Shown here in pieces: positions 25,651-30,488 of a stretch of DNA of 64,000 bases (positions within the stretch are counted from its first letter, which is position 1; every line of letters starts with the position of its first letter). Under the pieces are notes generated by a model. It had not been told where the DNA came from, did not search any database, and worked only from the letters and a program-made list of their open reading frames with translations. This DNA comes from a virus (Duplodnaviria; Caudoviricetes). The DNA lies in the IMG/VR virus record IMGVR_UViG_3300029288_000100, positions 1 to 64,000 of that record; one strand, written 5' to 3'. A program made the translations under genes and the position numbers.

Positions 25651-28374
25651 TTACGGAGCGAGCAGGCGGACCTTCGGGAGGCGGTGGAGACGCGCGAGCT
25701 CCGCGGCGCCGAGGAGCCCGCCCTTGTTCTCCCGGATCTGCTGCAACGCCTTCGCCACCCGCTTGGGGTCCACCAGCCACTTCCGGTAGCGCTCAACCAG
25801 CGCTTCGCGCCGGCGCCGGCGCTCGACCAGCCACCCGGTCCAATCGTGCTCCGGGAAGACCACCTCAAGCACCCGCTGCGTCGGTGGAAAAGTGCTGTTA
25901 TCCCAGTAGTACGCGGCGTCGTAGGCGGTGAACTCGGGGTCGAAGTGCACCGCGAGCACCCCGTCCAGCTTCGGCTTGGTCCCGGTCACCACGTACCCAA
26001 CCTTCATCCCGACGTGGAACCCGGTGTCGTGCTCCTTCACCCACTGTGCAAGCCGCACGTGGAGCGGCTGCACCTTGTACTCGTCGGGGTCCTTGGAGAT
26101 GCTCTTGGAGATCACCAGGTCCTCGAGCGGCAAGAGGTGGTCCACGCAGCGCCGGAACTCGGGCTCGATCAGCTCCACCTCCAGCTCCGCGGCGCTCAGA
26201 TCGCGCATGAGGATCGCGTCCATCACCCGGCGTTGGAGCTCGCGCGCTGCCCGTGATGTGTCGGAGCGCATGACCTCGAGCCCCTTCACATCGACGTTGT
26301 CCGTCCGGGCGCCCTTGTGAGAGAGCAGCCGGCCAGCGTACCGCTTCTTGGTGGTGAAGAAGATCTTGTCGTAGACGTCCTCGAACTCGAGTTGCACCGT
26401 GTTCCAGGCGAGATTGCACCCGCGGCTGTGAAGCTCGTGGACGTACTGCGGAGCGACGTGCTTCAGGAACTCCTCCCCGAGGCGGTTCACCTCGGCGACG
26501 CGCTCCTCCTCAGACGCGAAGCCAACACCTTGAAACAATTGAACATAGCAGGAATCCGTGTCCCCATAGATAACCCGGTACCCCATGCCCTCCGCGATGG
26601 ATGCAGTCAGCTTCACGAAGTGCCGCCCGCTCAGAGTCACCGCCTCAGCGAGCTCCACGTCGTAGTAGCGCGAGGTCGGCGAACCCAGGTCCCCATAGAA
26701 CGAGAGCCCGAGCTGCTTGTAGGCATAGGCCAGGCGGAAGTAGAGGCGGTACGTGTCATCCTCGGTGCTCCCGACCTCTGCCAACCTCCGCTGCATGAGG
26801 TCGGTGAACTCCCGCCGCCGCTCGAGGGTGTCGCGGAACATCTGCGAGACGAAGCCCTGGTGGTCGGTGCGGAAGGTCGCCCCCCCACGGACGTGCTCGC
26901 CGACCTCGCCGTGGACCGTTACCTCCGGGCAGCGGCAGAGCGACCCGGGCCCGTGCTCGAGGACGAAGTTCTCCCGGGCCTCACGCTTGACCAGGGTCTC
27001 CGGCGAGATGTTGAACGAGCACATCATCGACGGGTACAGCGACTTGAAGTCGAACGCCGCGACGTTGCGGTGCAGACCGCGCACAGGATCAAAGACGAAC
27101 GCCCCCTGGTACTTCTCCGGTCGTTCCGGTGCCCAGAACCGCGTCGGGAAGTGCACGCCCTCGCGCGCCCCCTTGCGCAGCATCAGCCGGTCAATCTTGG
27201 CGCTGTTACCGAACTCGTTCACGAAGCCGCGGCTGATCCGGCAGAAGAGCTGCTCAACGTGCACAAACCCGGAGTAGACCTCGAGCTCACGCATGAGGCG
27301 CGCGTCCTGCCGGTTGTAGTCCTGGAGCACATCCTTTCGGTGGCGGTAGAGGTTGATCACCTTGGGGGCGACGTGTGGGTGGCTCTCCCGGAGCAGCGTG
27401 CGCCAGTCCACCTTGCGCTTCTTGAGCACCTTCTCCCCGAGGCTGTCGAGGGCGAAGCTCGTGCCCTGCTCGGCGGCGCGGGTGAAATGCCGCCGGAAGA
27501 TCGGCAGCGGGTCCACGAAGAGCATCTTGCGCCACTCCATCGGGATCCGGTGGTGATGGAAGCGCGCGATGAGCATCGGGAAGTCGAAGTAGTCCCCGTT
27601 CCACGCGGCCAGCACGTCGTACCGGAGGAAGCGCCGCCGGAACTCGAGGAGCAGGGCCCGCTCCGCATCGTCCGTCTCCGAGCTGATCTCGAGGTAACCC
27701 TGGTCAAGCTCGTCCTGGGGGAAACGGCTGCCCTCCCACGCAACGGAGAGGATGCGGTTCCGCTCCTTCCGCTCGAACCCCCCAACGGAGTCATCCGTCT
27801 CGAAGTCGAAGAAGCACACGTGGTAGCGCTCCTGGACGCGGATGTCACGGTCCACGAGGAAGCGCTGGAGCGGCGACAGGTCAGCCTCGAGCGGCTTGAG
27901 CCCCTTCCGCAAGCACCAGTCCAAGAGGTGCTGCAGCTTGGTCCACCTGTCGCGGTTCTGCGGCCAGCGCACGGAGCGCGGAGACTCCCCGCCGGTGAAC
28001 GGGCGGCACCAGCGATCGCCGAACTCGGGGTCGCCGATCCGCTCGAAGACGCGCTTGCGGTCGAGCGGACGCACCTTGTTTTCGACGTAGACGCGCCAGA
28101 ACGACCCGGGGCAGCGGTCATCCCTGACGACTCGCTGCGCCCACTGCTTCGTCTTGATCACCCAGCTCCAGCCCTCGTCGCTGACCTTCGCCTTGTCACT
28201 GTCGGAGAGAATGAAATACCAGTCGACCGGAACGCGCTCCCGGTAGCGCTTGCCCCGCTCATCCCGGTAGAGCAGGGTGGCTCCGTCTCCCTCGCTCCAC
28301 CCGTTGTAGTAGACGCGATCCGGGTTGTGGAGCGTGGTGGCGAGCTGCTTGATCCTGGGGACCACTTGGGTCAT
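25651..28374 (-). CDS. polB: Family B DNA polymerase with 3'-5' exonuclease
   Basis: DFET, WNGDYFD, YNRQD, DFKSLYPS, KQLGLSFYG, YGDTDS, KKRYAG, KGLEVMRSD; ATG at 28374. Confidence 0.95.
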   Translation of the reverse strand: MTQVVPRIKQLATTLHNPDRVYYNGWSEGDGATLLYRDERGKRYRERVPVDWYFILSDSDKAKVSDEGWSWVIKTKQWAQRVVRDDRCPGSFWRVYVENKVRPLDRKRVFERIGDPEFGDRWCRPFTGGESPRSVRWPQNRDRWTKLQHLLDWCLRKGLKPLEADLSPLQRFLVDRDIRVQERYHVCFFDFETDDSVGGFERKERNRILSVAWEGSRFPQDELDQGYLEISSETDDAERALLLEFRRRFLRYDVLAAWNGDYFDFPMLIARFHHHRIPMEWRKMLFVDPLPIFRRHFTRAAEQGTSFALDSLGEKVLKKRKVDWRTLLRESHPHVAPKVINLYRHRKDVLQDYNRQDARLMRELEVYSGFVHVEQLFCRISRGFVNEFGNSAKIDRLMLRKGAREGVHFPTRFWAPERPEKYQGAFVFDPVRGLHRNVAAFDFKSLYPSMMCSFNISPETLVKREARENFVLEHGPGSLCRCPEVTVHGEVGEHVRGGATFRTDHQGFVSQMFRDTLERRREFTDLMQRRLAEVGSTEDDTYRLYFRLAYAYKQLGLSFYGDLGSPTSRYYDVELAEAVTLSGRHFVKLTASIAEGMGYRVIYGDTDSCYVQLFQGVGFASEEERVAEVNRLGEEFLKHVAPQYVHELHSRGCNLAWNTVQLEFEDVYDKIFFTTKKRYAGRLLSHKGARTDNVDVKGLEVMRSDTSRAARELQRRVMDAILMRDLSAAELEVELIEPEFRRCVDHLLPLEDLVISKSISKDPDEYKVQPLHVRLAQWVKEHDTGFHVGMKVGYVVTGTKPKLDGVLAVHFDPEFTAYDAAYYWDNSTFPPTQRVLEVVFPEHDWTGWLVERRRRREALVERYRKWLVDPKRVAKALQQIRENKGGLLGAAELARLHRLPKVRLLAP

Positions 28375-28952
28375 GGAGAAGGAACCATCCCCGCTTTGGC
28401 CTGCCGCTCGCGACGCGCAACCGCCTCGTCGCGACAGTCGACCAGCATGAGCAGCTCGCACATCTCCGTCGTCTCTTGACGCCCGGCACGCAGCTCATCA
28501 GCCAGCGTTCGGTGGTCGACGCCGATCCTCTGTTCCAGAGTGATTTCGATCTCGACGTTCAGGTTGGTGAGGACCACCTCGAACTCCGCATCAGTCGGGA
28601 TGTGGTTCATCTCTTCCATCGAGAAGACCGCCAGGAGCGCGGCTCGCTGTTCCTCAGTCTGCCGCTTCAGGAACCCGATCGGGAACGCCAGGTGCCCGTA
28701 GCGTGGAACGCGCACCTGCACCTCGACCAGCGTTTCGTTCTGACGCAGGGGCGTCATCCAGCGCGTTGGCTCCGGCACCTCCTCGGCGTCATCCACCAGC
28801 CCGTCGATGAAGAACTGGAGCACCTCGACGGACATGAGCTTGGCCTCATCGAAGCTGGAGCCGCTCGTGATGCAACCCGGGAGGTCATGGAAGGTGACCG
28901 AGAAACGGCCGGCCCCCTCGTCGAAGAAGTGAGCTTGGTAGGTTCTCTGCAT
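28371..28952 (-). CDS. HicB-like antitoxin domain fused to an unknown C-terminal domain
   Basis: TYQAHF..GRFSVTFHDLPGCITSGSSFDEAKLMSVEVL..DAEEVPEP; start ATG 28952 or 28955. Confidence 0.8.
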   Translation of the reverse strand: MQRTYQAHFFDEGAGRFSVTFHDLPGCITSGSSFDEAKLMSVEVLQFFIDGLVDDAEEVPEPTRWMTPLRQNETLVEVQVRVPRYGHLAFPIGFLKRQTEEQRAALLAVFSMEEMNHIPTDAEFEVVLTNLNVEIEITLEQRIGVDHRTLADELRAGRQETTEMCELLMLVDCRDEAVARRERQAKAGMVPSP

Positions 28953-28958
28953 CATTAA

Positions 28959-29773: not shown

Positions 29774-29887
29774 ACAACAGTTGCGTTGCGTTGCAAAGTG
29801 CCGCGGAGTGCCGCGCTGTGATGCGGAGCGGAGCACCGTGGTGCAGAGTGCGGTAGGGCGAGACGCGGCGGTGCGACGCGGCATCAG
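29774..29887 (-). ncRNA. Pentamer array A (20 units, 29781-29880), putative guide RNA
   Basis: Plus-strand units ttgcg ttgcg ttgca aagtg ccgcg gagtg ccgcg ctgtg atgcg gagcg gagca ccgtg gtgca gagtg cggta gggcg agacg cggcg gtgcg acgcg; begins 17 nt after the RAMP-like stop codon. Confidence 0.75.
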
Positions 29888-29897
29888 AATGGCACTT

Positions 29898-30488
29898 CTA
29901 CTTCCCCCACTTGATCTTCTCGACGATGAAACGCCCGTAGAATCCCCCGTTACGCGGGCGAAACCTGCCGATGCCGATGAACCTACCAGCCTCCTTCAGG
30001 TGATGCTCGAAGACGTGCTGAGTGATCGTCTCGTCGATCACATAGTAGGTCACATCCCCGGACCACGACGCGATCATCGGGTAGCACCTCCGCACCCGCT
30101 TTCCACCACCCTTGGACTTGGTCCCGGTAGAACTCATGAAGAACCACTCACCAGGGACGTCCTCCGCCTTCTCAGGAAGGACAAGCCCATCGGTCACCAT
30201 CACCCCCGCCTGGAAGTGCTTCGTGAAGGTCTCGCTTCCCTTCCCTGTCTTGATAGAAAGAAACGCAGCCGCTTCCGACAGGTTGTTCTTGAACACCATC
30301 GACGGGATGAACACGTGGCCGTCCGACGTGACGTGCATCTTCTTCCGCCACGTGCGACGCTCGTAGGCGTCCGGGTTTTCCTTGGCGTCCGGCGACGGAG
30401 TACCGTCGAAGTTGACCTTCGGCTCGTCGTGCATCCTGCTCTGGGAGTAGGGACTGATGCTCTTCAAGCTCGCAACCACCTCGATCAT
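29898..30488 (-). CDS. Stand-alone RAMP/Cas7-like RNA-binding protein
   Basis: N-terminal strand VVASLKSISP; GHVFIPSMVFKNNLSEAA (cf. Csm3/Cas7 G.P.IPGSSxKG.LR); C-terminal Gly-rich loop AGRFIGIGRFRPRNGGFYGRF; GGAGG SD. Confidence 0.75.
   Translation of the reverse strand: MIEVVASLKSISPYSQSRMHDEPKVNFDGTPSPDAKENPDAYERRTWRKKMHVTSDGHVFIPSMVFKNNLSEAAAFLSIKTGKGSETFTKHFQAGVMVTDGLVLPEKAEDVPGEWFFMSSTGTKSKGGGKRVRRCYPMIASWSGDVTYYVIDETITQHVFEHHLKEAGRFIGIGRFRPRNGGFYGRFIVEKIKWGK

Follow-up and report, generated by a model that had tools for sequence, protein, structure and literature searches.

The window analysed here is a 64,000-nt stretch of DNA, positions 1 to 64,000 of the IMG/VR virus record IMGVR_UViG_3300029288_000100 (Duplodnaviria; Caudoviricetes). 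It carries, on its minus strand, a locus that I take to be a phage-borne VIPR (Viral Interference Programmable Repeat) system, comprising a vipr gene, a gene for a winged-helix accessory protein (vap) and three vrRNA genes made of five-nucleotide units; I put the probability of this reading at roughly 0.8. VIPR systems have been described in three 2026 preprints (bioRxiv 10.64898/2026.04.26.720920, 10.64898/2026.04.26.720927, 10.64898/2026.10.15.759431). In the preprint text, Vipr polymerises along vrRNAs, each 5-nt repeat taking up one protomer; in these RNAs a GGY triplet (Y, pyrimidine) alternates with two variable bases, NN. The triplet is sequestered while NN pairs with double-stranded DNA reading NNx, and the systems silence genes of rival phages and satellites (10.64898/2026.04.26.720920, 10.64898/2026.04.26.720927). 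Seven VIPR types are published, and the SUSP1 system, from an Escherichia phage (Felixounavirus) and of type II, is the experimental exemplar (10.64898/2026.04.26.720920). A VIPR function for the present locus would follow from its homology to these systems. No new mechanism needs to be invoked, and the locus appears to be an otherwise ordinary member of the class, except that its triplets read pyrimidine-purine-C (YRC, with R for purine).

The Vipr homologue and its pentamer arrays

The source genome is 110,098 bp long and is rated complete (CheckV 100%). All coordinates below are window positions, and all genes and arrays of the cassette lie on the minus strand, in the order vipr, array A, an open reading frame (ORF) of 177 codons, array B, array C, a HicB-like gene and polB, encoding a family-B DNA polymerase. 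This order and co-orientation had been proposed in a sequence-only reading of the window, and are borne out by its ORFs and arrays. So is the lower GC content of the cassette (57–61%, vs 67% for the genome). As that reading also held, scans in and beside the cassette returned no cas1 or cas2, no CRISPR array and no nuclease gene, nor was there any defence or Rfam match, Cas5, Cas6 or large subunit.

The 196-aa product of vipr (29898..30488) is homologous to Vipr and has a Cas7-like fold. It is a single-RRM RAMP protein; its G-loop is IGIGRFRPRNGGFYGRF, and its thumb spans about residues 118–130. Searched as a single sequence against the PDB, its best match was the SUSP1 Vipr protein (36pp_D, E 0.0028), and with a profile of 21 homologues (A1) the same entry, 36pp, was the sole match (E 2.4e-7). 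Alignment with hhalign to the Vipr from Alf5, a SUSP1-type Felixounavirus, gave a probability of 96.9 over 122 columns. An AlphaFold2 model of the protein (predicted local distance difference test score, pLDDT, 86.6) was compared to the PDB with Foldseek, yielding 83 matches at E<=1e-3; those listed are all Cas7-type RAMPs, of types VII, III, IV and I, with 8z4j_J (E 1e-6) and 6ifl_F at the top. The RAMP/Cas7-like fold that had been suggested from sequence motifs is thus recovered, and the resemblance to VIPR that had also been suggested is supported by the preprints, which describe this architecture, and by sequence homology to SUSP1 Vipr. Among PHROGs the protein matches only phrog_4652 (E 7e-11), a family of unknown function. 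Pfam and PADLOC gave no match for Vipr or Vap (the Pfam RAMPs family, PF03787, does not detect Vipr), and no relative was found among INPHARED phages by blastn or tblastn. Every residue that is invariant in the family is present in the window protein, and both the vipr and vap ORFs are intact.

The three arrays consist of 20 units in A (29880..29781), 14 in B (29210..29141) and 19 in C (29059..28965), and the 53 units keep a strict 5-nt register with zero indels. The triplets are CGC (21), CAC (12), TGC (10), TGT (4), TAC (3), CGT (1), CAT (1) and CTC (1), so that 46/53 are YRC and 52/53 YRY; this recount agrees in every figure with the one first made. By position, the bases are C 36 / T 17 at the first, G 36 / A 16 / T 1 at the second, and C 47 / T 6 at the third. 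A motif-blind period-5 detector, based on column information over 10 units, found only these three tracts in the window and in the whole genome. In-register YRY runs reach 20, 19 and 7+6 units in the arrays, against at most 6 elsewhere on either strand. Array C opens with a 15-nt tandem duplication that fills its first 30 nt. In folding, the arrays do not outdo shuffled sequences, as expected of a single strand bound by protein.

Each array closes with a shared 3' tail, formed by its last two or three units, in which NN is AA, and by C(T/G)GTTGT: array A ends CGCAA-CGCAA-CTGTTGT, array B TACAA-CGCAA-CGGTTGT, and array C CGCAA-CACAA-CGGTTGT. With the last two or three units assigned to the tail, the guide parts are of about 17, 12 and 17 units. 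Accordingly, vrRNA A (29774..29880) is delimited as 20 YRC-NN units, about 17 of guide and 3 of xxCAA tail, followed by CTGTTGT. vrRNA B (29134..29220) consists of a leader, about 12 guide and 2 tail units, and CGGTTGT, and vrRNA C (28958..29069) of the same leader, about 17 guide and 2 tail units, and CGGTTGT. The leader, an identical 10-nt sequence, TGATCTTCAG, stands right before the first unit of array B (29220..29211) and of array C (29069..29060); the counterpart in array A, CATTCTGATGC, resembles it just loosely. The leader is not kept in the relatives examined, and may act as a signal for 5' processing or for a start. My guess is that the vrRNAs are processed from an operon transcript.

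Relatives of the locus and the strand that is read

The family has more than 1000 homologues, of which I collected 106 loci, 26 from genomes and 80 from IMG/VR. Period-5 arrays flank vipr upstream, downstream or on both sides in 102/106 of these, the association that the sequence-only reading had suggested looking for, and nearly all are read on the gene strand. Their consensus on that strand is GGCnn in 31 arrays, CGCnn in 34, GRCnn in 11 and CRCnn in 5, with CnCnn, CKCnn (K, G or T), GGYnn and others besides. At their ends, family arrays have NN = AA in the last two or three units, after which comes xG(G)TT or a stretch rich in T. A search for two NNCAA units followed by [CG][GT]..T found this tail 168 times on the gene strand versus 32 times on the other across the loci, and in the window at all three array ends on the minus strand and 0 times on the plus strand.

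These data bear on which strand is functional. Were the RNAs made antisense to the genes, off the plus strand, the arrays would read as NN-GYR repeats, akin to the YNNNG consensus that is among those published, and each unit would then present a conserved G followed by Y. However, the family arrays hold one orientation relative to vipr: 46 loci read GGC-NN on the gene strand, and the SUSP1-type arrays do alike, those of Alf5 reading GGT-NN on the vipr strand. The xxCAA-xxCAA-xGkTT tail lies 3' of the repeats on the gene strand only. In addition, array A sits within the vipr-vap operon, after the stop codon of vipr and ahead of the ribosome-binding site of vap, which follows 25 nt past the array. 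I therefore regard plus-strand RNAs as very improbable. Because GGC-NN members share clade and orientation with the C-first ones, and the SUSP1-type arrays too run with their gene, homology makes the minus strand the one from which the window arrays would be transcribed.

The content of the arrays turns over quickly. In four IMG/VR contigs (L073–L076), Vipr and its flanks are identical, and the arrays, which directly follow the vipr stop codon, have 20, 20, 24 and 33 units, and differ in their NN bases and by whole-unit duplications. The units here turn over rapidly, through indels in 5-nt phase, as expected of guides, and the duplication at the start of array C is likewise in keeping with it.

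One relative, L005, from a Polyangiales metagenome-assembled genome, has tRNA-like minihelices between consecutive GGC-NN vrRNAs (2340-2400 and 2480-2545 of that locus). They possess a T-arm, GGTTCGA(C/T)TCC, and an acceptor-like stem, and one ends in ACCA; ARAGORN called no tRNA in them, and they have no Rfam match. By analogy with the hammerhead-interspersed arrays of the preprint, they may be signals for processing by RNase P/Z. More widely, Rfam found no family in 16 related loci, and ARAGORN no tRNA in 20.

The 177-aa protein encoded at 29224..29757, behind a good ribosome-binding site, is the Vap of this clade. By tblastn it has a match beside vipr, on the same strand, in 51/105 loci. 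Its AlphaFold2 model (pLDDT 91.6) shows a winged helix (about residues 18–84) followed by a helical C-terminal domain. Foldseek returned only weak matches to this model, to winged helix-turn-helix regulators, none below E 0.05 in the PDB. Alignment to the SUSP1-type vap1 with hhalign gave a probability of 78.6 (E 1.7e-5).

A winged-helix protein encoded between pentamer tracts also invites another explanation, namely that the tracts act as DNA, as iterated operator- or iteron-like binding sites for it, and that the RAMP gene is unrelated to them. I give this hardly any credence. A 5-bp period, strand-asymmetric units and hypervariable NN bases are unlike the operators of such proteins, and the tracts follow the RAMP gene even where Vap is not detected (51/105 loci for Vap vs 102/106 for arrays). 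Furthermore, the SUSP1 arrays, to which these are homologous, have been proven to be RNAs and co-purify with Vipr.

Scaffold triplets and the residues that may read them

Among the 93 loci whose triplet could be classified, GGC (46) and CGC (24) predominate, and GAC (4), GTC (3), CTC (3) and GTT (1) also occur. Position 3 is almost always C across loci, and positions 1 and 2 are locus-specific. Examples with A or T at position 2 are L037, L098, L099 and L031 for GAC, L062, L092 and L104 for GTC, L008 and L106 for CTC, and L066 for GTT, where T is found at position 3 as well. The canonical GGY-NN members and the C-first ones thus form one clade and share one orientation. The sequence-only reading had proposed that a YRC-NN code would be a distinct subtype; instead, the YRC of the window is the relaxed end of a continuum, in a single clade whose triplet varies from locus to locus.

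The RNA contacts of SUSP1 Vipr were transferred to the window protein through the hhalign alignment. The residues of the pyrimidine pocket, M72 and R179 in SUSP1, align to M64 and R177, and are kept in most or all of the family. Those that read G1 and G2 in SUSP1, D177 and R138, correspond to R175 and Y136 here, and W178 to F176. Pocket residues that are kept, and G-reading residues that are replaced, fit a clade that holds position 3 constant and lets positions 1 and 2 drift.

At the base of the thumb, the G-first loci (n=42) have V118 in 41/42, P119 in 42/42 and F136 in 42/42. The C-first loci (n=25) have V118 in 4/25, N119 in 17/25 and Y136 in 12/25. Four pairs of sister loci switch the triplet base and these residues together (L044/L064, L065/L067, L009/L060 and L017/L077). 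In this clade, the first triplet base thus tracks three thumb-base residues (118, 119 and 136). A quick tree implies at least 17 changes of triplet class; its support is weak, so that shared ancestry might be the cause of the covariation. For triplet position 2, no tracking residue stood out among the columns checked.

The window Vipr has M118, S119 and Y136. This M-S-Y combination conforms to the C-first signature, and YRC is thus a relaxed form of a CGC-type scaffold. I read the Y/R degeneracy of the window arrays, on these sequence grounds, as relaxed Y-R-C recognition and not as decay. The alternative would be a decaying or inactive VIPR remnant, with former CGC-NN arrays in which the degeneracy is transition damage. 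All departures from CGC but one are indeed transitions (C to T at positions 1 and 3, G to A at position 2), CGC itself accounts for just 21/53 units, a share below that of most relatives, and exact-seed scans for targets turned up none. Damage of this kind is, however, hard to reconcile with a perfect register over 53 units, and with intact ORFs holding all of the invariant residues. Nor are the changes evenly spread: they affect 6/53 units at position 3, versus 17 at position 1 and 16 (plus the one transversion) at position 2, which makes them about three times commoner at each of the first two positions, and points to a position-specific constraint. Mixing of G and A at position 2 is moreover common in relatives whose arrays are otherwise clean (the 11 GRCnn and 5 CRCnn cases; L036, L068 and L003), and the protein bears the C-first signature. 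A remnant is therefore unlikely, though I consider it less so than either plus-strand RNAs or DNA-binding sites.

A further proposal, which I offer tentatively and would sooner bet against than for, is that the triplet is the evolvable address of mutually orthogonal Vipr-vrRNA pairs. In this scheme two or three thumb-base residues would determine its first base, V118-P119-F136 specifying G, and L/M/A/C118, N/S119 or Y136 specifying C; the M-S-Y of the window protein would read only a pyrimidine-purine-C shape. The frequent switches between sisters might then be driven by escape from the solo vrRNAs of rivals.

Proposed function and genomic context

Under the VIPR reading, vipr, vap and the three vrRNA genes would be co-transcribed on the minus strand. 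By extension from SUSP1, one Vipr protomer would bind each pentamer, with the triplet sequestered among thumb, G-loop and helix 1. Each protomer would present its NN bases for pairing with double-stranded DNA reading NNxNNx, with a 1-nt skip. The resulting R-loop triplex would keep a competing phage, prophage or satellite from being transcribed, with Vap assisting at the DNA.

Several observations weigh against this reading. The canonical GGY triplet is missing from the window arrays (0/53 units), and 17/53 units (CAC, TAC, CAT and CTC) are without any G. The window tail, of about 15–20 nt with a 4–5 bp hairpin, is not the pseudoknot of about 40–60 nt found in SUSP1. A consensus scan of the minus strand found neither a sigma-70 promoter nor a terminator, and the one sequencing run containing the stretch is a landfill DNA metagenome, with no RNA run among such runs. 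The covariation between residues and triplet is backed only by a quick tree of poor resolution. The 1-nt skip rule is taken over from SUSP1 and is only a prediction for this clade, and under that rule (NNx) exact-seed searches found no natural target for guides A, B or C.

The seeds were, in IMG/VR, units 3-14 and 9-17 of A, 4-12 of B, and 1-9 and 7-15 of C, and in the JGI (Joint Genome Institute) metagenomes a single seed, units 5-14 of A. These scans gave nothing, or matches confined to the seed in contigs of 35–65% GC, which were judged to be chance. In the phage's own genome the best guide match, 22/34, is noise, and no self-target was seen. Nor did 212 guides (209 from related loci and the three of the window) show any excess of skip-1 matches over shuffled guides in 0.85 Mb of loci. 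Published natural VIPR targets can match as few as six units (VIPR preprints), and the scans relied on exact seeds only, so the blank result says little. Read as codons, guide A gives V-T-R-L-P-R-S-T-G-S-S-(I/M)-(S/R)-G-S-G-(F/L), in which no motif was recognised.

The locus and the SUSP1 system are both phage-borne, and their Vipr proteins are homologous in sequence, each a single-RRM RAMP of about 195 aa with thumb and G-loop. In each, a small winged-helix protein is encoded alongside (the one here remotely similar to vap1), and there are several arrays of about 100 nt, read on the gene strand, with a triplet, hypervariable NN bases and a 3' tail that is constant. CRISPR arrays and adaptation genes are absent from both, and neither shows self-targets. 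They differ in the triplet, Y-R-C here (CGC, CAC, UGC, UAC) and G-G-Y in SUSP1; in the tail, a short xxCAA-xxCAA-CKGUUGU as opposed to a 40-60-nt pseudoknot; in the placing of one vrRNA between vipr and vap in the window; and in the low identity of the proteins (phmmer E 0.003). The methods of one preprint list vrRNA forms other than GGY, namely NNNGG, YNNNG and NNNNG, and allow "a related consensus" (10.64898/2026.04.26.720920). The CGC-NN relatives fit YNNNG, as xGY-NN. In contrast, all three listed forms keep a G, while position 2 of the window is G in 36/53 units only, and the GAC, GTC, CTC and GTT relatives lose G2 altogether; what is invariant in the clade is instead the C at position 3. 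With the Cas7 proteins of class 1 CRISPR systems (type VII Cas7, Csm3, Cmr4, Csf2), the window Vipr shares the RRM/RAMP fold, the thumb and the glycine-rich loop. Those proteins polymerise on a guide RNA at a fixed step of 6 nt, compared to a predicted 5 nt here. The window locus differs in having no repeat-spacer array, Cas5, Cas6, large subunit, cas1 or cas2, and in a guide that would be gapped, with only 2 of every 5 nt used.

The kind of system is therefore already known. What seems new, judging from sequence comparison and set against the preprint text only, is that the scaffold is labile in one clade, that the position-3 pocket is conserved, and that a few residues are candidates for setting specificity. 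As a class of RNA-guided DNA recognition, VIPR is only months old, and its characterised members, as far as the preprint text goes, have GGY scaffolds only. In a single protein clade, the scaffold switches repeatedly (GGC, CGC, GAC, GTC, CTC, GTT and a degenerate YRC), with the position-3 pyrimidine and its pocket residues remaining fixed and a few thumb-base residues tracking the first base. Should this be confirmed, the reading of the scaffold by Vipr could be approached at the level of single residues, and nature would supply a set of protein-RNA pairs, possibly orthogonal, for multiplexed programmable silencing. An arms race would also be suggested as the reason why scaffolds turn over.

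Directly after vrRNA C lies the HicB-like gene (28371..28955; PF15919, E 7.5e-10; phrog_497), which had initially been counted as part of the cassette. It has 0 tblastn matches in the 105 related loci, and a 271-aa ORF upstream is likewise without a counterpart there. On this comparison, both are treated as neighbours outside the conserved module. The HicB-like ORF begins with ATG ATG, 2 nt past the tail of vrRNA C (28964-28950, minus strand), and lacks a Shine-Dalgarno sequence; no adjacent hicA partner was seen.

Elsewhere in the same phage, there is a second, weak RAMP match, at 98530-99297 on the minus strand, about 34.5 kb past the end of the window and about 68 kb from the vipr cassette. 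The match is to PF03787, with an E of 5e-4 that does not reach the cut-off, and the phage may thus harbour two RAMP-based systems.

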